A DNA stretch of 64,000 nt from an uncultured Chloroflexia bacterium (GTDB taxonomy: Bacteria > Chloroflexota > Anaerolineae > Anaerolineales > UBA4823). The notes under the pieces are model-generated. The model was not told where the DNA came from. It saw only the letters and a program-made list of their open reading frames with translations, and searched no databases. The stretch covers positions 64,928 through 128,927 of the forward strand of contig CAVZSS010000018.1 in the NCBI GenBank assembly GCA_963777965.1, in the 5' to 3' direction. Positions within the stretch are counted from its first letter, which is position 1, and the number at the start of each line of letters is the position of its first letter. Position numbers and translations under genes: made by a program. Shown here in pieces: positions 1-46,493 of the stretch.

Positions 1-486
1 GCAGGTATCGAGGGCGGTCGAGATTCCCTGCTCCTTCAAGCTGCGCAAGAGCGCTTCGGTAAAGTCCGCTTGATAGGTTGGTTCACCACCGGATAGCGTT
101 ACTCCGCCGCCGGATTTCTCGTAGTAAGCCCGGTCTTTGAGTAGTTCAGCCAGTAATTCTTCTACGGACAAGGTCCTTCCCAGCATCTCGCGCGCACCAG
201 ATGGACAGGTTTCAACACATTTACCGCACGCCTCGCATCGTTGGCGGTCAATCACCAGTCCCGCGCCAGTCATCGCAAGGCATCTATTTGGGCAGGCATC
301 CAAGCATAATTTACAGCCGATGCAGCGCGTTGCGAACCACTGGGTTTGCAATTGCATGGAGATACTCTCCGGGTTGTGGCACCAGGCACACTGCAGAGGG
401 CAGCCCTTGAAGAAAACCGTGCTGCGGATGCCTGGCCCGTCCTCAGTGGAGAGGCGCTGGAGGTGCAGGATTCGGCCGGTGGTCAT
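1..486 (-). CDS. glycyl-radical enzyme activating enzyme (radical SAM, PflA-like); C-terminal part cut by window edge
   Basis: Absent from the ORF track because it runs off the window. My minus-strand translation from ATG 486..484 gives MTTGRILHLQRLSTEDGPGIRSTVFFKGCPLQCAWCHNPES... This holds the CxxxCxxC radical-SAM motif, two ferredoxin-like clusters (CIGCKLCLDACP, CEACGKCVETCP) and GGGVTLSGGEP. The ATG overlaps the TGA of the upstream GRE (ATGA). Confidence 0.85.
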   Translation of the reverse strand, partial: MTTGRILHLQRLSTEDGPGIRSTVFFKGCPLQCAWCHNPESISMQLQTQWFATRCIGCKLCLDACPNRCLAMTGAGLVIDRQRCEACGKCVETCPSGAREMLGRTLSVEELLAELLKDRAYYEKSGGGVTLSGGEPTYQADFTEALLRSLKEQGISTALDTC

Positions 487-3003
487 TTCATCTGGTGGCT
501 TTCACGGGAGATGATCTCGTTCTGGAGTTCCCTTCCAATGGAGGTGAAATAAGCGTTGTAGCCGGTGACGCGCACCAGCAGGTGCCGATAGTTCTCTGGG
601 TGAGACTGGGCGTCTCGCAACAGGTCAGCATTGACCAAATTTACCTGCAATGCGGAACCGCCATTTTCTATGTAACCCTTCAGGAAGGCCTTGAACTTCT
701 CACGGTGTTCAGGATCGCGCAGCATGGACGGGTTGAAGGTCATCGTGTGGCTGCCACCGTTGGGCAGAAGGTTCAGGTATTCCTCCCAATCTCCACGGCC
801 ATCTGCGGCTTTTCCACCCAGGGCTTTACCCACCGAGTTGACATTTGCTGTAGGTCCGTTGATATCTGCGCCATTGGAAGGGCACAATGCATTCGATAGG
901 AATTTTCCACGCGGGCGTCCATCTGGGCTGGCAGGCAGGATGAATGAATCAGCTACCCAATAGTTCCACGACAACATGCCGGGTCGGAATTGACGGCTGG
1001 TGGATTTTGTCTTGTATTTCCAGGTTTCTCCAGTCCATAATTCCATAACCTGGCGAGCCAGCGCATCGGCTGCCTCATCATCTCTGCCATACTTGGGAGC
1101 CTTGTGAAGGGCGCGTGCCTGTAGAACTTCGTGCCCACTCCAGTTATCCTTGAGTGCCTGGATGAGCTCTGCCATTGTGCATGCTTTTTGATCGAAGACG
1201 AGATACTTCACAGCCAGTAAAGAATCAACCGTGGTGGCGTATGTCACCGCCTCGATCGTTACGTAGCCTAATTCCGCGCCACCTTCGGTGATGTCCATCC
1301 CTTTCTGAGCGCAGCCTTTAACCAGGCAGGAGACATACGGTGTAGGTGCAAATTGGGCACGAATGGACTCGCTTTGCTCGTATAGTTCCACGATTCGGCG
1401 GATGATGTGTTGGGTCTGAGCAGCATACGCCTCCCAGAATTGCTCCCACGTATGGAATTGGGTAGCATCACCTGTGTCCGCTCCCCAGCGGGAGCGCGGG
1501 TCAGTCTTGCCGGTCATAGGGTCGGTGAACGGGATCAGGTCATAGCCTCCGGTCAGTGCCAATTCCACAGCCTTCAACAAATTCAAGTTGGCATCCACGG
1601 TGCCGGAGCGGTCGTTTCCAACCATCGTGTTTTCGAGGCAGCCGACTGGGGCATACTCAAAGACATTTTTCTCATGGATGAGTTGCGTCACCCCCGATTT
1701 CTTTGCTTGCAGCATCATGCCGGCCATGGAGCGTTCATCGAAATTGAGCAGGAAGGGCGATCCCTGGCTGGATGCGATCATTTCCACCACGCGGTCAAGC
1801 AATCTGTCTGGCGAGCCGCGGTGCAGGCGCACATTGGGTTTGGGCTCCAGGACGGGTGACATCTCGTCAATCACATCCAGCAGGATATACGTCAGATCGT
1901 TCGACATATCCTTCCCACCCGCTCCCATGCCTGAGATGGTGAAAAGTTGTCCATAACCTGCTGTAATTCCCTGGTTGCCGCCTGTGCGGATCATGCCATC
2001 GTAGGCGGTGTTGCAATGCAGCCAGAAGCATTTCAGGATCTCCTTGCCGAGTTCCGGGTCCATGCCTTCGCGGATGGACTGTTCCCATAAGGGAAATAAG
2101 TACTGATCGAACCGACCGAAGGAATCACCCGGGCCTGGGTAATTTTCATCCGACATGACCAGCATGTGAGTTAGCCAAAGGGACTGCAGCGCTTCCCAGA
2201 AATTTTGTGCAGGTTCCCAGGGGACGCGCGATCAGGTTATTGGCCATTTGGAGCAATTCCTGGCGACGTTGTGGGTCAGCTTCTATCTTTGCCAGTTGCT
2301 GGCATTCCTTGGAATATTCCGCTGCCAGGTCGCGTGGCATGCTTGCAGCAGTCATCATCGCGCGCAGTTGCGCACCTTTTTTGCCATTTTTATCCCCTTC
2401 GGCTAACGCTGCGTAGGTTGATTCAAGTTCGGCATGCACAGCTTTCCACCCATAGCGGATGATACGACCGTAATCGGGGATCAGGTGCCCGGACGTAGCG
2501 CCAACATTACCGTAGCCATGGTTGTGGAACCAGAGCATCGCTGCGCGGCTGCCCTTGAGGCCGTAGACCAGGCGATCGCGGTCTTTTGTCTCCTTTTCCG
2601 TCAGGCAGGTGGATGTCTGTATGTTGAAGCGCCCACCAGCAAGCAGGTCCCCGGGTAGGATTTCCTTTGGTAGATAATGTACCATCACCTCGCGGTTGAA
2701 CCAGGCGCGCCGCTCCGGCAGTGACCACTTCCAGAAATCAGGATGTAGGTTGACAGGGTGCGCCACTTGTTTAAAGGATGAGCGAAAAGTCTGCAGGAAA
2801 GAGTATGTCTCCGGGACGATATAGAAGGTTAATTCGTTATACTGGAAATCCCAGGGCGTTCCGGTGCTCCAGGAGGTGTACTCGTTGTTCCAGGCGCGGT
2901 TAACCCCCTGGAAATAATAATCACGTAGCCATTGGATGCGTGGTGACAAATTGGTAGGTGTTTTGATGGAAAAGTGGGGCTGAGTATCGGTTATTGTGGT
3001 CAT
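483..3003 (-). CDS. glycyl radical enzyme (PFL/GRE superfamily, single-Cys Cys-x-Glu loop, substrate unknown); frame broken once
   Basis: ORFs 2146..3003 (285 aa) and 483..2165 (560 aa) are the N- and C-terminal parts of one ~840-aa GRE. It has the glycyl-radical motif LLVRVTGYNAYF near the C-terminus and the thiyl loop APVGCLENTM. The conserved FWEALQSLWLTHM can be joined to the N-terminal ORF only by changing frame at the G4 run 2220..2223. An overlapping activase gene follows. Confidence 0.85.
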
Positions 3004-3388
3004 CGGCGTTCTCCTCTAAGATTTACTACCATGAACGTGCATCTCTTCTAGGAAGGTGTGTTAGTTTTATACGCATCGGCTGGTTGGGTCGTGCGGCAGG
3101 AGAAAAAAGTTGATTCAGGGTAAACCTTCCGGCATACGGGGATTATATCGCTAAGGCGTTAGATATGGTAATTCCTAATTTAGGAGTATATTTCCCTGAA
3201 AATTTTATAAAGTCCCCAAAAGGATATATCGAACATTTTTATCAGAAGATAAAATTGGTCCCACCGGGTAAATGATTGTTTTTCCAGTTCTATCAATCCG
3301 GGTTATACTTATTTTATTGTAACTACTCACCGGCCATCTATTATTACCATCACCTGCGAGTATTTGAGGCGGCAATATCCAGAAAACA

Positions 3389-3428
3389 GGGATCCGCAGG
3401 TGGTTTTCCCTGCGGATCCCTATTTTCT
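3389..3428 (+). terminator. perfect 12-bp hairpin with flanking A- and T-tracts (terminator/attenuator-like) inside a divergent intergenic region
   Basis: GGGATCCGCAGG (3389..3400), 8-nt loop, CCTGCGGATCCC (3409..3420), then TATTTTCT. AGAAAACA lies upstream. It sits ~110 nt before the aminotransferase start. Confidence 0.35.
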
Positions 3429-3539
3429 GACCTTTTCCCCCCATCCCAGACAATTTTGGGAAGGCGGAAAGGGGGGACTAAGGGGGGATGGGTGAGTAAT
3501 TACATTTTATTGGATCCAATATTAAATCGGAGGAAGGAC

Positions 3540-4901
3540 ATGACCCCAGACATCAATCCACTTGAACAACTTTACCGTTCGCGCACATCTGCATCCAAGC
3601 AATTATCTGATTTGGCAGGCAAATATCTGCCAGGTGGTGTAGCCGCCAATGGCAAATACCTCCCGCCCTACCCAATTTACATGGTCGGCGGCCAGGGTGC
3701 AGAGATGGTCGATATCGACAACAATAAATACATAGATTTATTGATGGGTGCGGGTGTTCATATCCTGGGACATTCACCTGAGTGTGTCCTGCGTGCTGTG
3801 CACAAGCAGCTCGACATTGGAGTGCACTATTATCTCCCGGCCGAAGCAGAGGTCAAACTGGCACAGAAGGTTTGTAAGCTGATGCCCTCGGTCGAGATGG
3901 TTCGCTTCTTGAACAGCGGTTCTGAATCAACCTTGATGGCTTTACGTGCTGCACGTGCCTACCGTAAGCGCCCCAAGATTGTAAAATTCGAAGGTAACTT
4001 TCACGGCCAGCATGATACAGTCCTGGTCAGTACCCTGGCAGTGGAAGGTGATCCGGGAACCCCTCAACCCCATCTGGATAGCGCTGGCATCCCTGAGAAT
4101 GTAAAAGACAACCTTATCATCCTGCCCTACAATGATCCGGACACCGCTGTCAAGCAGATCAAGCTGCACGCCAACGAGTTGGGTGGGGTAATCGTCGAAC
4201 CGGTCTCGGCTTTCGGTTTGGGGGTGGTGCCAGCTGATATCGAATTCCTCAAAGCCTTGCGCCAGGTGACTGCTGAAACAGGCGTCCCGCTGATTTTCGA
4301 TGAGGTAGTGACCAATTTCCGCATCGCACTCGGTGGTGCCCTCGAATACTTTGGCGTCCTGCCCGACCTGGTTTGCCTGGGAAAAATCCTGGGTGGTGGC
4401 TTCGCGATTGGGGGATTCGGCGGTAAGCGTGAGATTATGGACAAGGTAGTCACCCCAAAGGTCGGCCTGTGGGACCTGTCCGAACAAATCTTCCAGTCCG
4501 GCTGTTTCTCTGGCAATCCGGTCTCGATGATGGCTGGCCTTGCGGTCCTGGAGGAGCTCGAGAAAGGCACAACTTACCCGTATATCAATGCATTGACAGA
4601 AACCCTCTGCCGCGGAATGGATAGTCTTGGCGAACGTCTGGGTGTTCCTCTTATGGCTGCCAGGGTGGCATCTATCTTCCAATTCCACTTCACTTCCATA
4701 GGGATCAAGAATAAGCGCGATGCCATGAAAGCCAACAAGCAAGCTGCAGGCTTGTTCCACCTTGGCCTGCGCGCCAATGGTATTATGGCCAGTGCCCACC
4801 CGCTCTTTATGTCCACTGCGCACAATCAGAGCCATGTTGACAGGGTCTTGGAGGTCTCCGAAACAGTTCTCAAGCAGATGCTGATCAACAAGATGTTTTA
4901 A
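3540..4901 (+). CDS. class-III (PLP-dependent) aminotransferase, glutamate-1-semialdehyde aminomutase-like paralog
   Basis: In-frame ATG 3540 is preceded by GGAGGAAGG. The product MTPDINPLEQLYRS...GKYLPGGVA...DLLMGAGVHILGH...LIFDEVVTNFR...GKILGGGFAIGGFGG matches the GSA-AM/class-III pattern, including the Lys-containing GK-I-x-GGG segment. It lacks the canonical HemL GGVNSPVRAF, so I do not call it hemL. Confidence 0.85.
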   Translation: MTPDINPLEQLYRSRTSASKQLSDLAGKYLPGGVAANGKYLPPYPIYMVGGQGAEMVDIDNNKYIDLLMGAGVHILGHSPECVLRAVHKQLDIGVHYYLPAEAEVKLAQKVCKLMPSVEMVRFLNSGSESTLMALRAARAYRKRPKIVKFEGNFHGQHDTVLVSTLAVEGDPGTPQPHLDSAGIPENVKDNLIILPYNDPDTAVKQIKLHANELGGVIVEPVSAFGLGVVPADIEFLKALRQVTAETGVPLIFDEVVTNFRIALGGALEYFGVLPDLVCLGKILGGGFAIGGFGGKREIMDKVVTPKVGLWDLSEQIFQSGCFSGNPVSMMAGLAVLEELEKGTTYPYINALTETLCRGMDSLGERLGVPLMAARVASIFQFHFTSIGIKNKRDAMKANKQAAGLFHLGLRANGIMASAHPLFMSTAHNQSHVDRVLEVSETVLKQMLINKMF

Positions 4902-5106: not shown

Positions 5107-5136
5107 AAAAAATCCGCCTTTTGTGGCGGATTTTTG
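5107..5136. terminator. bidirectional intrinsic terminator between convergent genes
   Basis: AAAAAATCCGCC-TTTTGT-GGCGGATTTTTG: a GC-rich stem flanked by an A-tract and a T-tract. It lies between the aminotransferase (+) and the DmsC-like gene (-). Confidence 0.6.
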
Positions 5137-5153
5137 TGTGCCCCAATGAGGTT

Positions 5154-6622
5154 TTAACTTTTGTTTCGGCCTCGAGAGGACCGCACTTTATAAATACGAT
5201 AAGTCCCCGCATGATTGGCATTCATGGGAAACGGCTTACGAATAGCGTAAAACTGCCACCGGCCAATAATTTCGGCTGCCATGACTACCAGGAAAATTGG
5301 AATAGCCAGCCATGCTTGATTGGCCTGAGGTACGATAGCTAAGAACAGAGTCCCGATAATTCCCAGGCCGAGAAAAGCAATTCGCAGCTTACGTGCCGTG
5401 TCGTTATTGGTGGATTGTGTTGTCAGCATCATTAGTATTCCTGCTATCATTCCGATCCCGGCAAGGATTACCCATTCAGGGTGCGGTGCAGCGAAGTTTA
5501 CGCCAAGTGCTCCAAGAGTCACTGCGCTCAAGAAAAATGCTGCAGAGGTGCGCCAGTTGTTCCAGGCTGGGACCGCTCTAAGGTGGTAGACTTGGGTCAT
5601 GCAGTAAATCAGCCCGAGGCCTAATATCGCCAAAGGCCAGGGATTGGGAGAAATTTTCCAGAAAAATTGAAGTCCAACTGCTACCGCCCAGGTTGCTCCG
5701 AACAAGCCTGCCACCAGGATTTCCCGGCTCAGCCAGGATTTTTTGAGATGTATGACCGACCGCCAGGCATTGCCTTTCCTGCCCAGGTGCAGGAACGAAA
5801 TTATTCCCCCCGCTGCCCAGTAGAATACCGATGGCCAGACAGCACAGGCAGGGGTACTGGAGAAAGCACCAGGCTGAAAACTGCCATACCTGCTGCCGCC
5901 TGGGCGAGCAGGGTAAAGCCAACTAATGGCAGTTCGCGCACAGTGTCGATTCGATGGGTATTCTCAAACGAATGGGGTGGCCGGAGTTCTTCTTGGTTGG
6001 AAACCGTTTTGGTAAGCGGGTTATTCATCCCTGCATGTGGTTTGATGGCCAGATGCGGCTCCGTGCGTGAATAATCTGGCAATGGGAAAGGATGTTCGGT
6101 CGCTGGCAGCTGCCATAAATTCTGACCTTTATTTACTGTACTCAATTCTTCGATTGTTTCATAATCTAATACCCGGAGCGGGCAGGCTGCCACGCAACTC
6201 GGTGGCATACCAGCATCAAGTCGATCGTAACAAAAGTCGCATTTGGTCATGATGCCTTGCATGGTATCGTACTGCGGTGCTCCATACGGACATGCCCAGG
6301 CGCAGTAATCGCAACCCATGCACTTGGACGAGTCGATCAATACGATCCCATCCGGGCGGACGGTGTAGGCATCCACTGGGCATACGCCCGCGCATTTTGG
6401 ATGGGTGCAGTGGTTGCATGCAAGGGATAGGTTATAGGCGAAAACGCTGTTCTCCCACGCACTGCTGGCCATATGCCAATCCCCACCAGAGATTTCAATC
6501 ACCCGCCGCCACATTATTCCAATCGGCAGGTTGTTTTTATCCTTACAGGCTTCCTGGCAGGTCTTGCAACCCGAACAGGCACTTGCGTCAAAGGTGAATG
6601 TATAGCTCATCTCTCGAATCAT
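5154..6622 (-). CDS. fused 4x[4Fe-4S] ferredoxin subunit (DmsB-like) and DmsC-like membrane anchor; frame broken once
   Basis: ORF 5801..6622 carries the Cys clusters CSGCKTCQEAC, CNHCTHPKCAGVC, CMGCDYCAWAC and CDFCYDR...CVAAC. It then runs without a stop into a TM helix (LVGFTLLAQAAAGMAVFSLVL). The DmsC signature ISFLHLGRKGNAWRSVIHLKKSWLSREIL appears only in the frame of ORF 5154..5714 extended upstream. The frame change is most likely at the G4 run 5851..5854. Confidence 0.75.
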
Positions 6623-6635
6623 TCACTCCGCAGGT

Positions 6636-9017
6636 TCAAGGATTTCCTGAATCTCTCTGCTGTTTTTTTAGGTTGGATTTTTCAACTTGAACCATGATCG
6701 TATGCTGCGTCGAGCCGAATGCCAGTGGAGTCCAACGGTGGGAAGTCAGCACATTGATACAACCGCCATGATCAACACCCTCCGGGTCGGGGTCCCACCA
6801 GGCACCCTGCGGGATGTCGACCACGCCTGGCAAGATACGCTGGGTGAGGCGGGCATGTATGACCAGCTCCCCTCGTTCATTCCAGACCCGTACCAAATCG
6901 CCATCCTCGATACCCCTTGCCTTTGCATCCAGTGGATTGATGAAGATCCGCTGTGGGAAAGCCTCCTGAAGCCAGTCATTGTTAGCATGTGTGGAGTGCA
7001 CCCGGGCGAGGCTGTGATGCCCAATGGCTTGCAGTGGATATTGTTTTTCCCCATGTTTATTTGAGGCATTTGATCCATTGTCTCCCTCAGGGAATGGATT
7101 TTCCCATTCCGGGATGTATTTAGGTACCGCAGGGATATCATAGGGTCTGTCCATGTCATACAGGGTCTTGGAAAAGATCTCGATTTTACCGCTGGGTGTC
7201 TTCAAAGGGTATTTTTGTGGATCACGGCGGAAATCAGCCAGGCCAACGGCAGGTTGGGTGACTGGTTTTGAGTAGGCACCCAGGTTTTGCTCAATGAATG
7301 TTTCCAGGCTGGGCAGGTCAGGGAAGCGTGTTTCCCTGTAACGGTCAAGGCACCATTCCACCCAGCCTTTTTCGTCACGGCCTTCTGTATAAGCATCCCC
7401 AAAGCCTAAACGATCCGCCAGGTCTGCGCAGATTCGGTAATCACTCTTACACTCACCGAGTGGCTCGACCAGTTTGGGTTGTAAAATAACTTCATCTCCA
7501 TACTTCCAGCCGTCCTCCACTCCCCAGGTTTCGAACTGGGTGCAGGCTGGTAGCACAACATCCGCAAATTTTGCGGTGGAAGTCAGGAAGTTATCCTGAA
7601 CTACAATAAATTCAACTTTTGACTCGTCCCTCAGTATTGCTGCCGAGCGGTTGATATCAGCATGCTGGTTGATGAGGCAGTTGGTGGCAACGCCATAGAT
7701 CAGCTTAATGTCGGTCTTCAAGTTTGGGGCGCCGATCACACCCTCAGCCGAAGTCATCTCATGTCCACGCAGGCACGCTTCACTCCACAGAAAAACTGGG
7801 ATACTCGCTTTTACTGGGTTCTCTCCCGTCGGGAAAAGCGTCCAAAAAGGACCGCCGTCGGGTGCTTGCATACCCAGTCCACTTGCCCACCCACCCGGTA
7901 TCCCCACGTTACCAGTGATGGCAGCCAGCACACAACCGGCACGCACCACCTGTTCTCCATAAGCGCGGCGCTGCATTCCGTATCCCTGGTAGAGCACCCC
8001 GGGTTTGATCGTGGCATACTCATGTGCGATACGGGAGATGGTCGCCGCAGGCACTGCGGTGATGGCTTCAGCCCACTGCGGGGTTTTGGGGACTCCGTCA
8101 CGCACACCGAGCAGATAATCGGAATATGATTCTGAGCTCTCTGCACCTGGAGGCATGTGGGAGCCATCCCAACCTATGCAGTGGGTGCGAACAAAATCGG
8201 CATCGTATAGATCCTCGGTTAGCATCACATAGGCCATGGCGCTCATCATGGCCGTGTCGGTGCCCGGGCGGATGGGGATCCACTCATCGGCCAGGGATGC
8301 TGCTGAAAGTGAATGGCGCGGGTCGATGCACACAACTTTTGCGCCGTTCTCATGTGCCAGCTTGACGAAGTAATCGCTGTTGGTGCCATCGCGCATTTCG
8401 GCGGGATTCCAGCCCCACATAATGATGTAGCGGCTGTTCAACCAATCCTGGCGTTGGTTGCCAGTGACCAGGGTTCCATAAACAGTCGGAGTGGCGATAT
8501 TGATTGCGCCCCACGAATAGGAATTGTAAATACCGAGGCAACCGCCGAACAGGTTCATCAGGCGGCGAGCGGTGTGCGAGCCGTTGAGCTGGTTGTAGCT
8601 GCCCGTTCCGTAGGGTACAAACAAGGCTTCATTACCATATTTTTCTCTAACACGGTGAAGCTGCCCAACCACAGTCTCCAAAGCTTCCTCCCACGTACAG
8701 CGCACGAATTGGCCTTCACCGCGTTCACCCACCCGTTTAAGCGGATACTGCAGGCGGTCGGGATGGTACTGGCGGCGTAGGTAGGCGCGTCCCCGGGCAC
8801 AAGCCCGCAGCTGTGGAGCAGCCAGGCTGTCCGGGCGGTCGTCCGTATCCAGTTGGGTGATCCTGCCGTTTTCGATGGAGGCGATGAGCAGGCAGCGTCC
8901 TCCGCAGTTATGTGCCGGACATCCAACCCGGATTCGGGAGACAATCTGCCCGTTGTATCCTGGCCCCGTTTGCCGTAGAGAGGATGGATTGGATTTTGCT
9001 TTGCTGAAAAATTTCAT
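6636..9017 (-). CDS. molybdopterin (bis-MGD) oxidoreductase catalytic subunit, DMSO-reductase family, no obvious Tat signal
   Basis: 793-aa ORF with an N-terminal FeS motif GCPAHNCGGRC...C, followed by molybdopterin oxidoreductase and C-terminal dinucleotide-binding regions (...VVQDNFLTSTAKFADVVLPACTQFE...). The N-terminus MKFFSKAKSNPSSLRQTG has no RR-x-F-L-K motif. Confidence 0.85.
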   Translation of the reverse strand: MKFFSKAKSNPSSLRQTGPGYNGQIVSRIRVGCPAHNCGGRCLLIASIENGRITQLDTDDRPDSLAAPQLRACARGRAYLRRQYHPDRLQYPLKRVGERGEGQFVRCTWEEALETVVGQLHRVREKYGNEALFVPYGTGSYNQLNGSHTARRLMNLFGGCLGIYNSYSWGAINIATPTVYGTLVTGNQRQDWLNSRYIIMWGWNPAEMRDGTNSDYFVKLAHENGAKVVCIDPRHSLSAASLADEWIPIRPGTDTAMMSAMAYVMLTEDLYDADFVRTHCIGWDGSHMPPGAESSESYSDYLLGVRDGVPKTPQWAEAITAVPAATISRIAHEYATIKPGVLYQGYGMQRRAYGEQVVRAGCVLAAITGNVGIPGGWASGLGMQAPDGGPFWTLFPTGENPVKASIPVFLWSEACLRGHEMTSAEGVIGAPNLKTDIKLIYGVATNCLINQHADINRSAAILRDESKVEFIVVQDNFLTSTAKFADVVLPACTQFETWGVEDGWKYGDEVILQPKLVEPLGECKSDYRICADLADRLGFGDAYTEGRDEKGWVEWCLDRYRETRFPDLPSLETFIEQNLGAYSKPVTQPAVGLADFRRDPQKYPLKTPSGKIEIFSKTLYDMDRPYDIPAVPKYIPEWENPFPEGDNGSNASNKHGEKQYPLQAIGHHSLARVHSTHANNDWLQEAFPQRIFINPLDAKARGIEDGDLVRVWNERGELVIHARLTQRILPGVVDIPQGAWWDPDPEGVDHGGCINVLTSHRWTPLAFGSTQHTIMVQVEKSNLKKQQRDSGNP

Positions 9018-9100
9018 AACACCAGTATATAGTTTTTGGTACGATGTGAGAAGTGTCAGAGAGCACTTTTATATAACATATGGGATTATTTCTTCATAGA

Positions 9101-9137
9101 TTAAACAAAGAAAACTCGGAGGTGAACTCTGAGTTTT
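9101..9137 (-). terminator. weak terminator-like hairpin after the tRNA/repeat array
   Basis: On the minus strand, AAAACTCAGAG-TTCAC-CTCCGAGTTTT is followed by CTTTGTTT. The stem is AU-rich with one mismatch. Confidence 0.3.
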
Positions 9138-9140
9138 CAG

Positions 9141-9429
9141 GTGCCCCCAACGAGGTTCGAACTCGGTTGGCCTCAAGTCCCTGGAACGGGGATGAGAGAG
9201 CCGGGTTTCTGTGCCCCCAACGAGGTTCGAACTCGTGTTTCGGCCTCAAGTCCCTGGAACGGGGATGAGAGAGCCGGGTTTCTGTGCCCCCAACGAGGTT
9301 CGAACTCGTGTTTCGGCCTCAAGTCCCTGGAACGGGGATGAGAGAGCCGGGTTTCTGTGCCCCCAACGAGGTTCGAACTCGTGTTTCGGCCTCAAGTCCC
9401 TGGAACGGGGATGAGAGAGCCGGGTTTCT
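9141..9429 (-). repeat. four head-to-tail tRNA-Glu-derived units (one 70-bp variant 9141..9210; three identical 73-bp units 9211..9283, 9284..9356, 9357..9429)
   Basis: Direct reading of the sequence. The plus-strand unit is GTGCCCCCAACGAGGTTCGAACTCGTGTTTCGGCCTCAAGTCCCTGGAACGGGGATGAGAGAGCCGGGTTTCT. Its first 36 nt are identical to the 3' end of the adjacent tRNA gene. Confidence 0.95.
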
Positions 9430-9430
9430 G

Positions 9431-9503
9431 TGCCCCCAACGAGGTTCGAACTCGTGTTTCGGCCTTGAGAGGGCCGTGTCCTGGGCCGCTAGACAATGGG
9501 GGC
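9431..9503 (-). tRNA. tRNA-Glu (anticodon CUC)
   Basis: Manual cloverleaf: acceptor GCCCCCA/TGGGGGC, D stem GTCT/GGAC, anticodon arm CGGCC-CTCTCAA-GGCCG, variable AAAC, T arm ACGAG-TTCGAAC-CTCGT, discriminator A. 73 nt, with no encoded CCA. Confidence 0.9.
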
Positions 9504-9516
9504 GGAGAGCGACGGA

Positions 9517-9545
9517 ATTTTACCATCACCCTTAGGCTTCGTCAA
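9517..9545 (-). promoter_or_regulatory. sigma-70-like promoter for tRNA-Glu
   Basis: Minus strand TTGACG (9545..9540), 17-nt spacer, TAAAAT (9522..9517). This lies 13 nt upstream of the tRNA 5' end. Confidence 0.5.
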
Positions 9546-9616
9546 TTATAAGCCTTTAAAAATACTATAAATGTTCCTGGATCTATTTTGAATGTTTCTC
9601 AATAAGCAAGCCTGGT

Positions 9617-10861
9617 TTATTCCATAGCCCGCAAAGAAGGTCGCTGCCAGATAACCCATACCGCAAAGACGAATAAAATCAATGCGCTGATGATAACCGT
9701 AAGCGGCTCACCAATAATATCAGCTGTCCAGCCAGAGATCAGCGAGCCCAGCGGCATGGCTCCAAAAAAGAATAATGTATAAACGCCCATTACCCGACCG
9801 CGCATCTCATCTGCGATCCTGGTTTGGACCATCGAATTGGAAAGATTGACGATCATCATGAAAGCAAACCCCATTAAGGCCATGGCTAATAAAGACGGGA
9901 TCAACCATTGCATGAAGGCGAAGATGATCATCGAGATTGGCAATAGGATGCTGTTGATCGTCCATAGCTTTCCGTGCACTCGCATCCTTCCCAGGGCAGC
10001 GATCATCAGGGCTCCAATCAACGATCCAATACCCCGCGCGGCCATTAAAAATCCATTTGTCGTCGCATTGCCCCCCAAAACTTCCACGGACCAGGCCGGT
10101 ATCAGTGCTGCAATACCTAATCCCAAGAAGGTGATGATAGACAGATTGAAAATCAGCATTTTTACACTGGGATGGTTGAAGACGTATTTCAATCCCTCCT
10201 TTACGTCGCGGAAGGCACTGCTGTTGGTCAGAACTGGAGAAAATGGCTTTAATTTCATTAAAACGAGTGCAATAATCACCGCAATAAACGAAATGCCATT
10301 AATGGTAAAACACCAGCCTGGTCCAATCCAGGCATAGATCAAACCACCAAAGGCTGGTCCTAATACCATCGCTAAATTGAACATGGTTGAATTTAAGGCA
10401 ATCGCATTGGTCAGGTCCTTCCGGTCCACTATTTCGACCACGAATGCCTGCCGGGCAGGTGCGTCAAAAGCGTTACATACTCCCAGTAAAAATGCCAGGA
10501 TGAGGATGTGCCACCATTGAACCGCATTGGTAAAGGTTAAAAATGCCAGGATGAATGCCAGAACCATCATGCCGCTCTGGGTAATCACCATAAGAGTCCG
10601 CCTGGAGACTCTATCGGCTATTGCTCCGGCATATAGGGTGAATATCCAGGTTGGCAGACCATTCGCAAAACTAACATACCCAAGGTAGGCTGGGGATTTT
10701 GTTAATTCGTAGATCAGGTATCCCTGGGCAGCGGATTGTGCCCAGGTTCCAACCAGGGAGACTAATTGCCCGGCGAACCATAAACGATAATTGGGATACT
10801 TCAGCGATGTAAAAGTATTATGAAGGGAGAACTCCTGGGATACGCCCGCCTCTCGCACCAA
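9617..10861 (-). CDS. MFS transporter
   Basis: 414-aa polytopic ORF with the MFS motif-A-like GAIADRVSRRTLMV between predicted TM2 and TM3 and about 12 hydrophobic segments. TTG or GVG start. Confidence 0.85.
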   Translation of the reverse strand: MVREAGVSQEFSLHNTFTSLKYPNYRLWFAGQLVSLVGTWAQSAAQGYLIYELTKSPAYLGYVSFANGLPTWIFTLYAGAIADRVSRRTLMVITQSGMMVLAFILAFLTFTNAVQWWHILILAFLLGVCNAFDAPARQAFVVEIVDRKDLTNAIALNSTMFNLAMVLGPAFGGLIYAWIGPGWCFTINGISFIAVIIALVLMKLKPFSPVLTNSSAFRDVKEGLKYVFNHPSVKMLIFNLSIITFLGLGIAALIPAWSVEVLGGNATTNGFLMAARGIGSLIGALMIAALGRMRVHGKLWTINSILLPISMIIFAFMQWLIPSLLAMALMGFAFMMIVNLSNSMVQTRIADEMRGRVMGVYTLFFFGAMPLGSLISGWTADIIGEPLTVIISALILFVFAVWVIWQRPSLRAME

Positions 10862-40902: not shown

Positions 40903-43900
40903 ATGATTACACCTGACTCTATGAATGATGGTATGCCTGCTCCTCCAGGCCAGGTTGCCCCGAAGAAGAAGATTCGCTGGGTAACCCCGTTTATATTCGA
41001 TGTTTTGCTGTTATTTGTCCTCCTCTTTGGAGGGTTGTTTCGTTTTGTTGGCCTGAAGTGGGGAGATTGGCAATATCTTCACCCGGATGAGCGTTTTCTG
41101 ATCTGGGTTGGTACGGATATTCAACCCATTGGGACACCTGCTGAAGCCCTTGGTACACCGCCGAATTCTGATAATATCCCATATCGGACAGCCTTTGGAG
41201 ATGCCTACCCCGATTGTGAAACCTGGGGCGGTTATTTTGATGCTTCATGCTCTCCGCTCAATCCAAACAACCGGGGCCATTCATTTTACGTGTATGGCAC
41301 CCTTCCCATGTTCCTCACCCGTTACGTGGTGCAGTGGATTTACGGTCATGCTGGTTTTAATGAAATGACTGTTGTTGGAAGGGTATTTTCCGCAATGGTG
41401 GATTTTCTGGCCATCCTTCTTGTGTATGCAATCGGCTCGCGGGTATTTAACAAGCCGGTGGGCCTGCTGGCGGCTGCTTTTTCTGCCTTCACCGTGCTGA
41501 ACATCCAGCAGTCCCACTTTTTCACCATGGATACCTTCTCCAACTTCTTCACCTTGTTGGCGGTCTATTTTGCGGTCAGGATTGGTTTGACGGAGGGCAT
41601 ATCCACAGTCGATCAAGGGCAAAACCTTGATCGACTCCTCTCCGGATCCACGGATATAGAAGATAACTCAGGACCGCAAACATTTCTCTCCCGCATCACC
41701 CAATTTATCAAACATCCATTCTTTGGGTTTTCCGTTGCCTTCGGGATTGCACTTGGCTGTGCAGTCGCCTCCAAGCTGAATTCAGCCCCGGTGGCTTTCG
41801 TGCTCCCTGTGGCGTTTGGGGTGATTCTTTGGAAAAAATCAGCCCATGAACGCACAGGTTGGTTGGTGAAAGCTGTCGTTTACATGGGCATCGCTGCCTT
41901 TGTGAGTATCCTGGTCTTTCGAATTTTTCAGCCCTATGCCTTTTATGGTCCCGGTTTCTTTGGCGTCCGTCCAAATCCCCAGTGGGTTGCAAATATTAAA
42001 GAGCAGCGCAATCAGGCTGCAGGTGATGTGGATTTTCCGCCCTCCCTTCAGTGGGCACGCCGTCCAGTCTGGTTCTCTGCCCAGAACTTGATCGAATGGG
42101 GATTGGGTATACCCCTGGGAATCCTGGCGTTCATTGGTTTCATTTGGGCTGGGTGGCGTATGATTAAAGGGGATTGGACACGCCATATCTTGTTATGGTT
42201 GTGGGGCGGCTTCTACTTCACATGGCAATCCTTGCAATTTAACCCGACCATGCGCTACCAGATGCCCACCTACCCCATCTTGGTGATTTATGCTGGGTGG
42301 GCAGTGGTGGAGATATGGAATTACCGAAAGCAGACGAAAAACCAGGGATTTACCGAGGCAAGCAATCCTCGCAGACTTACGCCCGGCTGGCCCCGTTGGG
42401 TATCCATCCTGGTTGGCGGCGCTGTTCTCATTGCTACTTTTCTCTGGGCGTTCAGTTTCAGCCAGATTTATTCCCGCCCAATCACTCGTGTGGCCGCCTC
42501 TGACTGGATTTACCAAAATATCCCTGGACCTATTAATCTGCACATCCAGGGAAAGGACGAAACTTACAACCAGCCCCTTTCAATCCCATATGGCAGCACA
42601 GTCCAACCGGGTGTGCCGTACCAAATGATGTTCACTGCCAATGCCAGTGGCACGCTCAACGAAGTTTACCTGGCACATATCCTCGACATTCAGGCTTTGC
42701 AGCCTGCTGCCTTGAATGTCACTCTTGCAGGATTTCCCGATGGAACTGTGCCGCTTATGTCAGCCGTGATCGCTGTATCGCCCCCGAAAGTGGATGATGC
42801 ATCGCCGGCTGGATACCAATTGAATTTTAATACTCCGGTAGCCGTGGAAGCAGGCCAAGTTTATTACCTGTTGCTAACCCTTGCTGCAGGGGAGCAAGCA
42901 CTGGATGCTTGCGGGGCTGTAGGTTTTATCATTAAGACCCCCACCGAGCTGATGACGCAGACAGTAGCAGGCTCGGAGCAGTGTGTGATCAGCCTGGAGA
43001 CACCTTTTGTCCTTGCCATCAACCCTCTGGAAAGCGGATTGTTGGAAGGGGTTGTTCTTAGTAAGCTGGATGACCATACCCCTGCCTCCACTCCCAAGAC
43101 CTTGCAACTCACCATTGGGTCTTCCGGTGACGACCAGGTGATTGCAACCGCCAGCCTCACCGCAGACTTCACCCAAGGGGCTGAAAGTGGAGGGGCTGGA
43201 TATACCATGCTCCTCAACCATCCGGTCAACCTTGAAAAAGGTAACAACTATCGCTTGTCCCTGGCCTTGGAATCAGACCGCGGCATGATCAGCGTGCGTG
43301 GTTCTGCGGTTGCGAACGAAGGGGATTGGGATGATGGGCTGCCGCTGCGTGTGGATGGCTATGACGCTTTTGGAGGAATTTATCCGCCGGGCTTGAACTT
43401 CAACATGTATACCGATGATAGCCTGGAGAAGCTGGAGCATTTTATTAATATCTACGACCAGGCTGAGTACATCCTGGTCAGCTCCAACCGCCAGTGGGGT
43501 TCATTGCCACGCCTGCCCGAGCGTTTTCCAATGACTACCCTGCATTATCGCCATCTATTGGGGTGCCCCGAGAACCGCTCCATTTATTGGTGTTACAGCG
43601 TCGCCCAACCCGGTATTTTCCATGGTGACCTTGGTTTCGACCTGGTGGAAATATTCCAATCAGACCCGGTGATCGGTTCCTTACCGATCAACGACCAGTT
43701 TGCCGAGGAAGCGTTCACGGTCTATGACCATCCAAAAGTTCTCGTCTTCCATAAAAACGAGGCTTATAACACCGAACAAGCCAATAAAATCCTGAGCCAG
43801 GCAAATTTCACCGAGATGGTGCGCATTACTCCCAAGAAAGCTGCCTACCACCCTGCCAACCTGAAATTTCCTGATACTCGCCTGGCTGCACAGACGGATG

Positions 43901-45570
43901 GCGGCACCTGGTCGGATTTGTTTAACTCGCAGGGATGGCAGAACCGCTACCAGGTACTGGGGGTTATCGCCTGGTATATTTCAGTAAGCTTGTTGGGCTT
44001 GCTGGTGTATCCCCTGCTGAGAGTTACCCTGCCTGGCTTACCTGACCATGGATATCCACTCATCCGCACGGCCGGGATGCTAGTTTTGGCTTACTTTACC
44101 TGGCTGGCGGGATCGGTAAACATTCCCTTCAATCGGCTGACGATCACAATTGTGATTCTGCTGATTGCCATGCTTGGAGCTTTCTCTGGCTTATCGCCAG
44201 CGGATGAACTACGCAAGGAATGGCATTCAAAACGGGGATATTTCCTGATCATTGAAGGTTTAGTCCTGGCATTCTTCCTCATTTTCCTGTTCATCCGCTT
44301 AGGAAATCCCGATCTATGGCACCCATGGAAGGGTGGCGAGAAGCCGATGGATTTTTCCTATTTCAATGCTGTATTAAAAAGCACAACCTTTCCACCTTAC
44401 GATCCTTGGTACGCCGGTGGATACATGAATTACTATTATTGGGGCTATGTCTTTGTGGGTGTGCTGGTTAAGGAATTGGGCATCGTCCCGTCGTTTGCAT
44501 ATAACCTGATCATCCCCACCCTTTTCTGTATGGTCACGATGGGAGCATTCTCCATCGGTTACAACCTGAGCCGCTCACGCAGCATGGAGGACAAATCTCC
44601 AGGCACAGAGATTGATGGACTGTCACCTCCAAAATCCAAATGGCAGCCTTACCTTATTGGGCTGGCAGCTGCATTTGGCATGTCTATCCTCGGCAACCTG
44701 GGCACGATACGCATGATCATTAAAGGCTGGCAGCAGATAGGTGTTCCAGGTGGGTTGACCGAAAGCACTGGTTTCTTCACCCGCTTAATGGGCGTGCCTC
44801 TCGGGCTGTATCAAAACGTGATCCAGGGTGCAAAAATGCCTTATAGCATAGGAGATTGGTATTGGCTTCCAAGCCGGGCGATTCCCGCCCCAGGTGATGT
44901 GGAACCGATTACCGAGTTTCCCCTATTCACTTTTCTCTATGGAGACCTGCATGCTCACATGATTGCCCTGGCAATTGCCATGCTTGCCCTCACCTGGGTG
45001 GTGGCTGTGCTGATGGGCAAAGCACGCTGGCAGAATATTGGGGTGGGGGTTATGGGTATCCTCTTGGGCGGCCTGGCAATTGGAGCTCTCTACCCGACCA
45101 ATCTATCCGATATCTATACCTACCTGCCCATCGGGATGGTTGTTTTTGGATACGCCATATTCCGTTATGCGGATGTTGGTATTTTTTCCAGGTTACCGCA
45201 GGTCAGCCTCACCTTAAAACGCCTCATCCTGGCTGGTACCGGGATGCTCTTGCTGGTTGTGGCTGCTTATGGTTTATATCTTCCTTACCGGTTATGGTAT
45301 GCCCAGGGGTACAGCTCAATCATTCCCTGGTTTGGAACCCACACGCCTCTTTGGGCATACTTGACCCATTGGGGTTTATTCCTTTTTGTGATCGTTTCCT
45401 GGATGGTCTGGGAAACCCGCCAATGGATGGCATATACACCGCTTACCTCCTTGCGCAAGCTTGAAAAATTCAGCGGGTTAATCATCCTGCTATTGGTCAT
45501 CCTCTTCCTGGTCTGCCTGCTCTTAAGTATCAGGATACCCGGAATAGAAAGCACTCAGCTTGCTGAGTAA
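40903..45570 (+). CDS. very large membrane protein: GT-C-like N-terminus, ~500-aa soluble middle, Chlor_Arch_YYY (DUF2298) domain
   Basis: 1555-aa ORF with HPDERFLIW in the first loop, then later WKGGEKPMDFSYFNAVLKSTTFPPYDPWYAGGYMNYYYWGYVFVG, the YYY signature. Confidence 0.75.
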   Translation: MITPDSMNDGMPAPPGQVAPKKKIRWVTPFIFDVLLLFVLLFGGLFRFVGLKWGDWQYLHPDERFLIWVGTDIQPIGTPAEALGTPPNSDNIPYRTAFGDAYPDCETWGGYFDASCSPLNPNNRGHSFYVYGTLPMFLTRYVVQWIYGHAGFNEMTVVGRVFSAMVDFLAILLVYAIGSRVFNKPVGLLAAAFSAFTVLNIQQSHFFTMDTFSNFFTLLAVYFAVRIGLTEGISTVDQGQNLDRLLSGSTDIEDNSGPQTFLSRITQFIKHPFFGFSVAFGIALGCAVASKLNSAPVAFVLPVAFGVILWKKSAHERTGWLVKAVVYMGIAAFVSILVFRIFQPYAFYGPGFFGVRPNPQWVANIKEQRNQAAGDVDFPPSLQWARRPVWFSAQNLIEWGLGIPLGILAFIGFIWAGWRMIKGDWTRHILLWLWGGFYFTWQSLQFNPTMRYQMPTYPILVIYAGWAVVEIWNYRKQTKNQGFTEASNPRRLTPGWPRWVSILVGGAVLIATFLWAFSFSQIYSRPITRVAASDWIYQNIPGPINLHIQGKDETYNQPLSIPYGSTVQPGVPYQMMFTANASGTLNEVYLAHILDIQALQPAALNVTLAGFPDGTVPLMSAVIAVSPPKVDDASPAGYQLNFNTPVAVEAGQVYYLLLTLAAGEQALDACGAVGFIIKTPTELMTQTVAGSEQCVISLETPFVLAINPLESGLLEGVVLSKLDDHTPASTPKTLQLTIGSSGDDQVIATASLTADFTQGAESGGAGYTMLLNHPVNLEKGNNYRLSLALESDRGMISVRGSAVANEGDWDDGLPLRVDGYDAFGGIYPPGLNFNMYTDDSLEKLEHFINIYDQAEYILVSSNRQWGSLPRLPERFPMTTLHYRHLLGCPENRSIYWCYSVAQPGIFHGDLGFDLVEIFQSDPVIGSLPINDQFAEEAFTVYDHPKVLVFHKNEAYNTEQANKILSQANFTEMVRITPKKAAYHPANLKFPDTRLAAQTDGGTWSDLFNSQGWQNRYQVLGVIAWYISVSLLGLLVYPLLRVTLPGLPDHGYPLIRTAGMLVLAYFTWLAGSVNIPFNRLTITIVILLIAMLGAFSGLSPADELRKEWHSKRGYFLIIEGLVLAFFLIFLFIRLGNPDLWHPWKGGEKPMDFSYFNAVLKSTTFPPYDPWYAGGYMNYYYWGYVFVGVLVKELGIVPSFAYNLIIPTLFCMVTMGAFSIGYNLSRSRSMEDKSPGTEIDGLSPPKSKWQPYLIGLAAAFGMSILGNLGTIRMIIKGWQQIGVPGGLTESTGFFTRLMGVPLGLYQNVIQGAKMPYSIGDWYWLPSRAIPAPGDVEPITEFPLFTFLYGDLHAHMIALAIAMLALTWVVAVLMGKARWQNIGVGVMGILLGGLAIGALYPTNLSDIYTYLPIGMVVFGYAIFRYADVGIFSRLPQVSLTLKRLILAGTGMLLLVVAAYGLYLPYRLWYAQGYSSIIPWFGTHTPLWAYLTHWGLFLFVIVSWMVWETRQWMAYTPLTSLRKLEKFSGLIILLLVILFLVCLLLSIRIPGIESTQLAE

Positions 45571-45578
45571 ATTACCCT

Positions 45579-46493
45579 TTGGGAGAGGCGCAACCCTGGC
45601 TTGGGTTATCCTGCCGCTTGGCCACCTGGGCGGGGGTCTTGCTGATACGACCAGGGATGCCGGATGCCAAGCGGCTGGTCCTTTTTTGGGTGGGGACCGG
45701 GCTGTTAATCACGTTAATGGTCGAAGTGGTCGTGGTCAGGGGAGATATTGGCCGCATGAATACCGTGTTCAAGTTCTACCTGCATTCGTGGGTGCTGTTT
45801 GCCTTGAGCGCAGCGGCTGCCCTTGGCTGGTTGCTCGAGCCGGTCCGCCATTGGCTTACAGGTTGGCGGGTTGCCTGGCGGGTGGTATTCGCAGCCCTGG
45901 TAATTTGCACTGCCCTGTTCACCCTGTATGGCAGCTTGGCGAAGATTCAAGACCGTTGGGTACCCAACGCGCCTCATACCCTGGACGGTATGGCTTATAT
46001 GCCATTCACCTCGTATTATGAGAGTTATCCAAAGGTTAGCGAGTCAGCACCGGTTGATGCAGAAGGTATAACCATGGATTTAAGCCAGGATTACCGCGCC
46101 ATCCGCTGGATGCAGGAAAATATCCAGGGCTCACCTGTGATTGTGGAAGCCATCTCTCGTAATTTATACCGCTGGTATACTCGTTTTACCATCAACACCG
46201 GCCTGCCTGGGGTAGTCGGTTGGGAATGGCATGAGCAGCAGCAGCGTGCTGTCAATCCGCCCGATTGGGTAACAAAGCGGGTGAGTGATATTGATCAGTT
46301 CTATAATACTGTGGATACAGACATAACCAGGCAATTTATAAACTTGTACGGAGTGAAATATATCGTCCTTGGGCAGCTCGAAGGTGTCACCTATCCCGGA
46401 CCTGGGCTCGATAAATTCCCGGCTTTTAACGGCATCTTATGGAATGAGGTTTACCGGGATGCAAACACGGTCATCTATGAGGTGATTCAATGA
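45579..46493 (+). CDS. C-terminal module of YYY-domain protein (TM segments + soluble domain), separate ORF in this assembly
   Basis: 304-aa ORF containing RGDIGRMNTVFKFYLHSW. It is paralogous to 48237..49136 (DSFGVRMNTVFKFYYQAW), and both share GWEWHEQQQR / GWAVHESQWR. Confidence 0.65.
   Translation: MGEAQPWLGLSCRLATWAGVLLIRPGMPDAKRLVLFWVGTGLLITLMVEVVVVRGDIGRMNTVFKFYLHSWVLFALSAAAALGWLLEPVRHWLTGWRVAWRVVFAALVICTALFTLYGSLAKIQDRWVPNAPHTLDGMAYMPFTSYYESYPKVSESAPVDAEGITMDLSQDYRAIRWMQENIQGSPVIVEAISRNLYRWYTRFTINTGLPGVVGWEWHEQQQRAVNPPDWVTKRVSDIDQFYNTVDTDITRQFINLYGVKYIVLGQLEGVTYPGPGLDKFPAFNGILWNEVYRDANTVIYEVIQ

Follow-up and report, generated by a model that had tools for sequence, protein, structure and literature searches.

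An intact tRNA-Glu(CUC) gene in a 64,000-nt stretch of DNA from an uncultured Chloroflexia bacterium (contig CAVZSS010000018.1, positions 64,928 to 128,927; hereafter the window) is followed on its 3' side by a head-to-tail array of four short units. We consider, with a probability of about 0.6, that these units are attachment-site-type fragments of tRNA-Glu, i.e., minimal gene-less cassettes, which were amplified in tandem at an integration hot spot and are DNA relics, probably not genes. This reading is based on the anatomy of the units, their polymorphism among relatives, the blocks they share with the ends of gene cassettes, a second tRNA-Glu copy that brackets the inserted DNA, and the lack of covariation in the units. 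Orthologous loci were fetched using the upstream genes (M23 peptidase, RecA, VKOR, and MFS transporter), and a pattern scan (CTCTCA, 8-38 nt, tRNA 3' half) matched arrays in three Chloroflexota metagenome-assembled genomes (MAGs) of GTDB and in ten metagenome contigs; individual loci are referred to by L numbers. The features of the array are given below, R1 denoting a covariance model derived from 13 different units.

9517..9545, minus strand: sigma-70-type promoter, TTGACG, 17-nt spacer, TAAAAT, with TG ahead of the -10 hexamer (10/12 matches in the scan)
9431..9503, minus strand: intact tRNA-Glu(CUC) without encoded CCA (ARAGORN 9430-9503; Rfam tRNA model 59.2 bits at 9431-9503)
9358..9430, minus strand: unit 1, 73 nt (Tandem Repeats Finder, TRF, and exact dissection; R1 89.3 bits)
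9285..9357, minus strand: unit 2, 73 nt, identical to unit 1 (exact dissection; R1)
9212..9284, minus strand: unit 3, 73 nt, identical to unit 1 (exact dissection; R1)
9142..9211, minus strand: unit 4, 70-nt edge variant in which GGCCAACCGAG replaces GGCCGAAACACGAG (dissection; R1 71.1 bits)
9103..9141, minus strand: intrinsic terminator after the array, AAAACTCAGAG-TTCAC-CTCCGAGTTTT with T-rich tail (-12.3 kcal/mol, z = -4.3)

TRF described the array as 4.5 copies of a 73-nt period with 98% matches (span 9141-9465), and exact dissection, spanning 9430-9142, resolved it into three identical units and one variant, as had been reported in a preliminary description made from the letters alone. 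The intactness of the tRNA gene, also reported there, was confirmed by ARAGORN and Rfam, and the minimum-free-energy fold of the gene is a cloverleaf (z = -2.5). In tandem arrays that evolve in concert, the edge repeat is typically more diverged than the others. Each unit consists of an 8-nt linker CAGAAACC, tRNA positions 27-37, a 19-nt insert, and tRNA positions 38-73, in this order. Positions 27-37, which comprise the 5' strand of the anticodon stem and loop positions 32-37, read CGGCTCTCTCA compared to CGGCCCTCTCA in the tRNA, i.e., with one mismatch, and the palindromic insert TCCCCGTTCCAGGGACTTG (TCCCC-GTTCC-AGGGA-CTTG) is placed exactly at 37/38 of the tRNA numbering. Of the tRNA, the units lack no more than positions 1-26, corresponding to the 5' acceptor strand and the D arm, whose place is taken by the linker. 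The preliminary description had the 5' part of the tRNA, anticodon loop included, replaced by about 37 new nucleotides, which holds for the acceptor strand and the D arm and fails for the anticodon stem-loop; the exact 3' identity, given there as 36 nt, amounts to 35 nt within the segment of positions 38-73. The 37-nt non-tRNA core occurred 4 times in the window, with 0 occurrences expected by chance. The units were called as tRNA by neither ARAGORN nor Rfam (tRNA model, E up to 10), 9431-9503 being the only call, and no unit has the complete cloverleaf with acceptor stem and D arm of a functional tRNA gene.

The promoter located 13 nt 5' of the tRNA gene, already noticed in the preliminary description, was recovered by the scan and is almost unchanged across all orthologous loci. 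The terminator-like hairpin noticed there after the last unit was overlooked by a simple consensus scan, yet is stable on folding, and it is kept in L006/L007 as a perfect 11-bp stem and in L005. Since the window array contains no terminator and is flanked by the conserved promoter and terminator, it is probably co-transcribed with tRNA-Glu as a 3' trailer, an RNA to which we ascribe no function.

In this Anaerolineae-like lineage, gene cassettes collect at the 3' end of tRNA-Glu(CUC), which serves as a hot spot of site-specific integration; the intact tRNA gene of the window is the corresponding target (attB-bearing) gene. These cassettes start right after ...TGGGGGCA(C) and end with a right end that is derived from tRNA-Glu and regenerates ...TGGGGGCA(C). 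Right ends occur in a short form, composed of CC(C)CTCTC(A/G)A, about 7 nt, TTATCCGYATATACA, about 8 nt ending in a C-run, and (T)TGGGGGCA, and in a long form, composed of tRNA positions 27-37, a C4/G4 palindrome, and true positions 38-73. The left ends read (C/T)AGAAC or GGAAYATAT, and both the window linker CAGAAACC and the corresponding CACAAATAT of L006 resemble the first nucleotides of such left ends. Moreover, the units have two blocks in common with the cassette right ends, CCCTCTCA and the C-run/G-run palindrome, both of which are invariant in the units. The cassette repeats of the relatives begin at the T-stem/acceptor junction, (G)TTGGGGGCAC.

Tandem insertion is best seen in L009, where three cassettes follow the tRNA gene, carrying a 119-aa open reading frame (ORF), a Fic gene, and a MazE-like gene with a PIN gene, respectively. 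Each of these modules begins just past TGGGGGCAC, and both modules with a right end inside the locus finish in the conserved right end and TGGGGGCAC. Single insertions were found in L005, L008 (AAA_14/DUF4143), L010, L012, and L017, and these end in TGGGGGCA(C) behind the conserved right-end motif, which has decayed in L012; the exceptions are L008, with a right end without the motif, and L010, with a right end beyond the locus. In L017, the order is tRNA, unit, unit, cassette, indicating that the 3' end of a unit can act as an insertion point. The order cassette, terminator, unit was observed in L019 and L003, and the units of L003 lie between cassettes with no tRNA gene nearby. As a side observation, a cassette family with left end GAAYAYATAGTCCATATTTTCYATAT and right end CCCTCTCRA...TTATCCGYATATACA...TGGGGGCA was located at L009 4431-7242, L005 5433-6215, L017 ~970-2415 (reverse), L003 1440-1600, and L001 ~615-668; its cargo comprises Fic, MazE-like and PIN genes, the 119-aa ORF, which has no Pfam match, and a PD40-repeat lipoprotein-like ORF. 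L019 also encodes a group II intron reverse transcriptase/maturase (RVT_1 and GIIM; 474-1325, minus strand) just past the terminator that follows its unit; this was the only recombination-related gene met in the search for a recombinase and is unrelated. Some bacterial group II introns target terminator hairpins.

In the window, the array is followed by a DMSO/selenate-type molybdopterin reductase operon, dmsABC (Pfam; 5154..9017, minus strand), and by a second copy of the tRNA-Glu 3' part.

9018..9096, minus strand: left-end/promoter region of the dms cassette, TGAAGAAATAATCCCATATG...CTCTGACACTTCTC...TATACTGGTG (aligns with the DNA directly upstream of dmsA in L001-L004)
6636-9017, minus strand: dmsA (Pfam)
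5801-6622, minus strand: dmsB-like gene (Pfam)
5154-5714, minus strand: dmsC-like gene (Pfam)
5139..5183, minus strand: decayed partial tRNA-Glu copy, positions 27-73, without hairpin (R1 28.5 bits, E ~5e-7; 38/46 identities to the tRNA)
5107..5138, minus strand: ancestral terminator of the tRNA, AAAAATCCGCC-ACAAAA-GGCGGATTTTT (-15.7 kcal/mol, z = -7.7)

The partial copy at 5183-5139 reads CGGTC CTCTCGA GGCCG AAAC AAAAG TTAAAAC CTCAT TGGGGCA and is located at the 3' end of the dmsC-like ORF; R1 recovered all units plus this copy. The terminator next to it and the same downstream DNA come after the TGGGGGCAC repeat that closes the island of L008, and the class-III aminotransferase gene beyond the terminator (3276-4901, plus strand) is syntenic with L008 and L014. 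The position of the copy beside a terminator and flank shared with L008 thus gives an ancestral order of MFS gene, tRNA-Glu, terminator, and aminotransferase gene, and the same bracketing defines 9430-5184, i.e., the four units together with dmsABC, as inserted DNA. Loss of the units alone would bring CCTGAAAAC to the 3' end of the tRNA, whereas loss of the whole insert would bring CACAAAAATCCGCC there.

The dmsABC operon was found in at least four other, unrelated genomic contexts, and synteny upstream of dmsA was not kept. A copy of the tRNA-Glu 3' end lies directly before the dms region in L001 and L002, with TAGAACC at the left end of the cassette, and ~2 kb upstream of dmsA in L003, with another cassette in between; none was present within the region examined of L004. 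No record of the exact DmsA protein of the window was found, and its four orthologous loci contained no tRNA gene. Judged from these sequence contexts, dmsABC behaves as cargo of an integrase-less mobile cassette of the same hot spot. The sequence TTATCGTATTTATAAAGTG was considered as a cassette right-end motif at the right end of the window dms segment; it is a weak match that needs an indel and lies inside the dmsC frame, and we did not rely on it. The dmsB/dmsC region of the window is split into ORFs of 273 and 186 aa, compared to one fused ORF of 462-470 aa in L001, L002, and L004, and a pyruvate-formate-lyase-like gene elsewhere in the window (483-3003, minus strand) is present as two overlapping ORFs, 483-2165 and 2146-3003; both splits may be frameshifts due to pseudogenisation or long-read indel errors.

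Units were located behind tRNA-Glu(CUC) at at least 11 other loci in related Chloroflexota genomes and metagenome contigs, i.e., clade-wide, with 1 to at least 6 units per array and periods of 75, 89, or 98-100 nt. Since homologous units differ in length among relatives, the agreement of the 73-nt unit with the length of the tRNA, which the preliminary description took as meaningful, is coincidental. At least 6 units were counted in L013, 3 in L014, 2 in each of L016-18, and at least 2 in L024 and L025, where adjacent units are unlike each other. At the orthologous locus (M23-RecA-VKOR-MFS-tRNA), the window carries 4 units and L006/L007, two independent assemblies with an MFS protein 97% identical, carry 1 unit of 75 nt, followed by the same terminator and then dmsA; L005, L008, L009, L010/L011, and L012 are without any unit behind an identical tRNA. 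While the flanks of the window and L006 are 93-98% identical, the non-tRNA part of the unit is only 72.5% identical (11 of 40 positions differ; P = 9e-8 given the divergence rate of the flanks), and this far faster divergence indicates replacement or independent acquisition of the unit rather than vertical descent.

In most relatives, a unit is separated from the 3' end before it by a strong intrinsic terminator, and such terminators are found ahead of each unit in L013, L014, L015, L019, L021, L022, L024, and L025, with none between the tRNA and the units in the window, L006, and L016. Co-transcription of the units with the tRNA, which the preliminary description had proposed, is therefore a fair inference for the window and is not a general property of the unit family.

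The module also accompanies the tRNA gene outside the orthologous locus, as L015 has units behind a tRNA-Glu(CUC) with another acceptor stem and another neighborhood (genes for cysteinyl-tRNA synthetase and PIN). The palindrome core at 37/38 was kept in more than 10 lineages, including this differently placed tRNA-Glu. Within it, TCCCC and GGG are invariant, whereas the hairpin loop and spacer are saturated with changes (0/8 vs. 11/12 variable columns, Fisher p = 7e-5), and all of these columns lay outside the search pattern.

Some variant units are described here in their own right. In the units of the outgroup MAG L015 (3220-3410), the T loop is separated from the 3' T-stem strand by another palindromic insert, ~20 nt long (GCGAAGCGCACCCTCGGGTG), so that the two inserts sit at the two canonical integrase crossover sublocations. 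Some units have a non-random variant 3' end in common, TTCGAAG(G/A)CTCGCTCTGGGCA (L016 ~285-305, L019 ~290-307), which reads CGCGCTCTCGGGGCA in L021 (~115-135, reverse strand), compared to CCTCGTTGGGGGCA in the tRNA; this variant may stem from an early displaced copy or from the tRNA-Glu of another host. The last visible unit of L013 (4470-4499), where the contig ends, is without the palindrome (CGGCCCTCTCAAGGTCGAAACATGAGTTCG) and is a plain 5'-truncated tRNA copy with two mismatches.

The mechanism we propose would involve a site-specific recombinase that acts in trans and inserts cassettes at ...TGGGGGCA(C). A unit would then represent a cassette cut down by deletion to its ends, with the 8-nt left end fused to a 65-nt right end of the long form. 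Once a first unit was present behind the tRNA gene, direct repeats of at least 35 bp would be available for unequal crossing-over or replication slippage, and action of the recombinase between att copies on sister chromosomes would be an alternative route of amplification. The outcome would be three identical copies and an older edge variant, as found in the window.

Ends of genomic islands are marked by the regenerated tDNA and a displaced fragment, with crossovers falling into an anticodon-loop and a T-loop/junction class (PMC4383910). The window matches this Islander principle, and resembles tandem islands with partial tRNA genes (PMC9897764), in that an intact tRNA gene is followed by 3' partial copies in the same orientation (units at 9430-9142 and the copy at 5183-5139, all on the minus strand). 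As in Islander islands, the block of identity extends from a known crossover sublocation, the anticodon stem ('A') or the T-stem/acceptor junction ('J'), to the 3' end, being interrupted by the 19-nt insert in the units, and the intervening DNA is foreign or variable among relatives, as exemplified by L008 and by dmsABC, which occurs elsewhere in other contexts. In contrast to such islands, the interval from tRNA to fragment is here 8-35 nt without genes or integrase, and the conserved 19-nt palindrome at 37/38 and the identical tandem amplification are further differences. No integrase was found in the island among the 30 ORFs of the window or among the genes examined at the fetched loci, and the locus therefore fits only the subclass of integrase-less elements resembling cis-mobilizable elements (CIMEs); att repeats are present on both sides, and the DNA between them has no integration genes of its own. 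Definitions of the Islander type require an integrase and a minimum length and would thus filter out the units of the window. Of the explanations offered in the preliminary description, amplified attachment-site copies is the one we favour, given the hot spot, the boundary at position 27, the shared end blocks, and the copy at 5139-5183.

The closest parallel within the phylum Chloroflexota is provided by the ssrA islands of Dehalococcoides (PMC3146451), in which tandem modules behind one small-RNA gene are each bounded by a direct repeat of its 3' end with a conserved motif just upstream, many modules are without integration genes and maybe cis-mobilizable, and respiratory reductase operons are carried as cargo. 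On the other hand, those islands use ssrA, a 20-bp repeat, and the serine recombinase DsiB, whereas the loci described here use tRNA-Glu(CUC) and repeats of 9-46 bp, gave no recombinase among the genes examined, and include smallest modules that carry no gene at all. CIMEs and accretion at att sites, as summarized in PMC3146451 from Pavlovic et al. (2004), and the tycheposon remnants as presented in 10.1101/2020.12.28.424599 are similar in that decayed integrase-less elements keep their att sites and accumulate at tRNA genes, parted by partial tRNAs; successive integrations of tycheposons leave elements separated only by such partial tRNAs (10.1101/2020.12.28.424599). The elements presented in these sources are kilobases long, in contrast to the 73 nt of the units, and no description of a 73-nt, essentially att-only, tandemly amplified element was found in the literature surveyed.

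Several points weigh against the units being amplified attachment-site fragments. No recombinase was detected among the 30 window ORFs (Pfam), in the gene tables of L001-L012 with precomputed Pfam matches, or among selected ORFs of L014, L015, L017, L019, and L021, so that the recombinase is purely postulated. Neither an excision product, nor an empty-site read, nor a viral or attP counterpart was seen, and three scans of viral contigs, using the unit pattern, the tRNA 3' half, and the cassette right end, gave no match. A circle of 73-100 bp would be much too short for a module to integrate in this form, and an origin by deletion followed by amplification must therefore be assumed. The collection scans demanded CTCTCA and the tRNA 3' half, and the apparent conservation of both is consequently subject to a search bias. 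Furthermore, the conservation of the palindrome is only loosely explained; its designation as a site for a recombinase is guesswork, and selection for a fold, of RNA or of single-stranded DNA, would be compatible with it too. An RNA product of the array is likely in the window, where no terminator separates the tRNA from the units, and the palindrome change of L015 together with its T-loop insert is the one hint towards RNA.

The alternatives are taken here in descending order of probability. As a tentative idea, which we hold to be possible and hardly probable, Anaerolineae-type Chloroflexota may carry an undescribed integron-like cassette system on tRNA-Glu(CUC), in which degenerate tRNA-Glu 3' parts with a C4/G4 palindrome would serve as sites, possibly as folded single strands, a recombinase would act in trans, and the units would be empty cassettes or docking sites; toxin-antitoxin modules, Fic, ATPases, and even dmsABC may be shuffled between genomes by such a system. 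In a related proposal, the hairpin-bearing module would be the dedicated site of an integron-like platform for cassette capture and selection would maintain the units as empty cassettes or as spare sites for docking. The arrayed cassettes of the relatives, which are small, have one function each and no integrase, and share conserved ends, would agree with this, as would the cassette inserted past the 3' end of a unit in L017, the conservation of the palindromic core at sequence level, and the association of the module with the tRNA rather than the locus in L015. However, no integrase adjoins the array, its upstream neighbor being the conserved MFS transporter gene, the units are dispensable in many relatives, and a recent neutral amplification accounts better for the identical copies. 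Moreover, no attC-like R/L boxes were recognized; boxes of the GTTRRRY type were looked for in the units by eye, no formal attC model being run. On the available sequences, we consider this platform doubtful.

The repeats of the E. coli tyrT operon, in units of ~178 bp, include the 3' end of the tRNA. According to the account of Bosl and Kersten (1991) given in PMC3318445, that operon, similarly to the window, has a tRNA followed by co-transcribed tandem repeats, and one of its units yields a small RNA, rtT (rttR). In a further alternative, the units could be functional tRNA-like RNAs of ~70 nt, co-transcribed with the tRNA, in which a T arm and an unpaired 3' acceptor strand follow an extended anticodon-like arm. 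Such RNAs would act as a decoy or sponge for a factor binding tRNA-Glu (nuclease, modification enzyme, RNase Z, or CCA-adding enzyme) or would regulate the maturation of tRNA-Glu. The conserved promoter upstream and the array without terminator in the window would suit such a role, as would the invariant hairpin core with its variable loop. The inserts lie in loops, at 37/38 in all units and also in the T loop in L015, where structured RNAs tolerate expansion. In L015, the anticodon-loop palindrome is TACC/GGTA compared to TCCC/GGGA elsewhere, which is one apparent double change, and the 42-nt extended arm folds better than shuffles (z = -2.5). In contrast, the whole unit folds no better than shuffles (z = +0.25), and a covariation test on the 13 distinct units revealed 0 pairs changed on both sides, with an observed value not above that of shuffles. 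The units consequently have no covariation-supported pairs of the kind that mark a structured non-coding RNA, the sole possible double change being that of the outgroup L015. The three helices of the unit depart from pairing through mismatches only, with A·C in the anticodon-like stem of several lineages and a broken T stem in four units.

Because the units have no 5' acceptor strand, RNase P, RNase Z, and aminoacyl-tRNA synthetases would have no standard substrate, which also counts against a functional RNA, as do the terminators ahead of units in the eight relatives listed above, the lack of units in several close relatives, and the occurrence of the same blocks at the ends of gene cassettes. 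Searches with Rfam over 8800-9900 at E up to 10 returned tRNA only, Plastid-ycf2 (antisense of the tRNA) and snoU49 being noise, and no RtT match was obtained in this range; the tyrT repeats differ from the units in sequence and structure and are not known to belong to a hot spot of integration. The suggestion of tRNA-derived small RNAs or decoys, made in the preliminary description, gained no support, given the lack of compensatory changes, the broken helices, and the terminators between units, and we regard a functional RNA as unlikely. In our view, the comparisons speak for a module that serves as a recombination site and is subject to horizontal turnover, rather than for a gene of a structured RNA.

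It is quite improbable that the copy number is an assembly artefact in which one unit was expanded. Three copies are 100% identical over 219 nt and many related contigs break inside arrays (L013, L022-L025), which would favour such an artefact. However, unique sequence anchors the window array at either side, its last unit is a distinct variant, and fully spanned arrays exist in independent assemblies (L014 with 3 units, L016-18 with 2). The presence of arrays with 1 to at least 6 units in independent JGI, ENA, and GTDB assemblies indicates that the architecture is real, and an artefact would at most alter the copy number, not the nature of the unit. Decayed tandem tRNA-Glu genes without any mobile element, another option of the preliminary description, are very improbable, since, although tandem tRNA genes are common in bacteria and the 73-nt period resembles the length of a tRNA, no unit in more than 10 lineages retains 5' acceptor or D-arm sequence, the 5' boundary always lies at the anticodon stem, the period varies from 73 to 100 nt with the linker, and the locus is demonstrably an insertion hot spot.

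Other candidates were rejected. A dispersed hairpin resembling repetitive extragenic palindromes does not agree with the 0 other matches of TCCCCN5GGGGA in the 64 kb, a phage attP or prophage border does not agree with the empty viral contig scans, and the 3-nt bulges around a 4-bp helix of an archaeal-type bulge-helix-bulge intron at 37/38 could not be drawn consistently across variants. A split or permuted tRNA would require a 5' half, which was found nowhere; a type III toxin-antitoxin system with ToxI-like repeat RNA was dismissed because no toxin gene adjoins the array and the unit length is variable, and a transfer-messenger RNA or Y-RNA-like tRNA mimic because there is no 5' acceptor strand and no ARAGORN or Rfam match. 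In an unrelated part of the window (40903-49136, plus strand), a 1555-aa ORF is followed by ORFs at 45579-46493 and 48237-49136, each matching only the C-terminal end of DUF2298, which may be a duplicated or fragmented membrane-protein cluster.

In summary, the array is best filed as a small-scale variant of a well-known kind of feature, not as a new class of RNA gene. For annotation, this means that such arrays should not be labelled as tRNA genes, pseudogenes, or small RNA genes. They are markers of a hot spot of recombination and account for the fact that short-read contigs in this clade stop just past tRNA-Glu. The more notable by-product of the analysis is a family of integrase-less cassettes with ends derived from tRNA-Glu in uncultured Chloroflexota, which includes dmsABC. 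At this locus, an anaerobic respiratory operon is seen to travel between sites derived from tRNA-Glu in the form of a small cassette without integrase, in a group that is uncultured and abundant in the environment, echoing the reductive-dehalogenase islands at ssrA in Dehalococcoides. Should a dedicated recombinase turn out to recognize the palindrome, a new tRNA-anchored cassette system would be defined, and CCCTCTCA...C4/G4...TGGGGGCA would provide a sequence tag for mapping its cargo in metagenomes.

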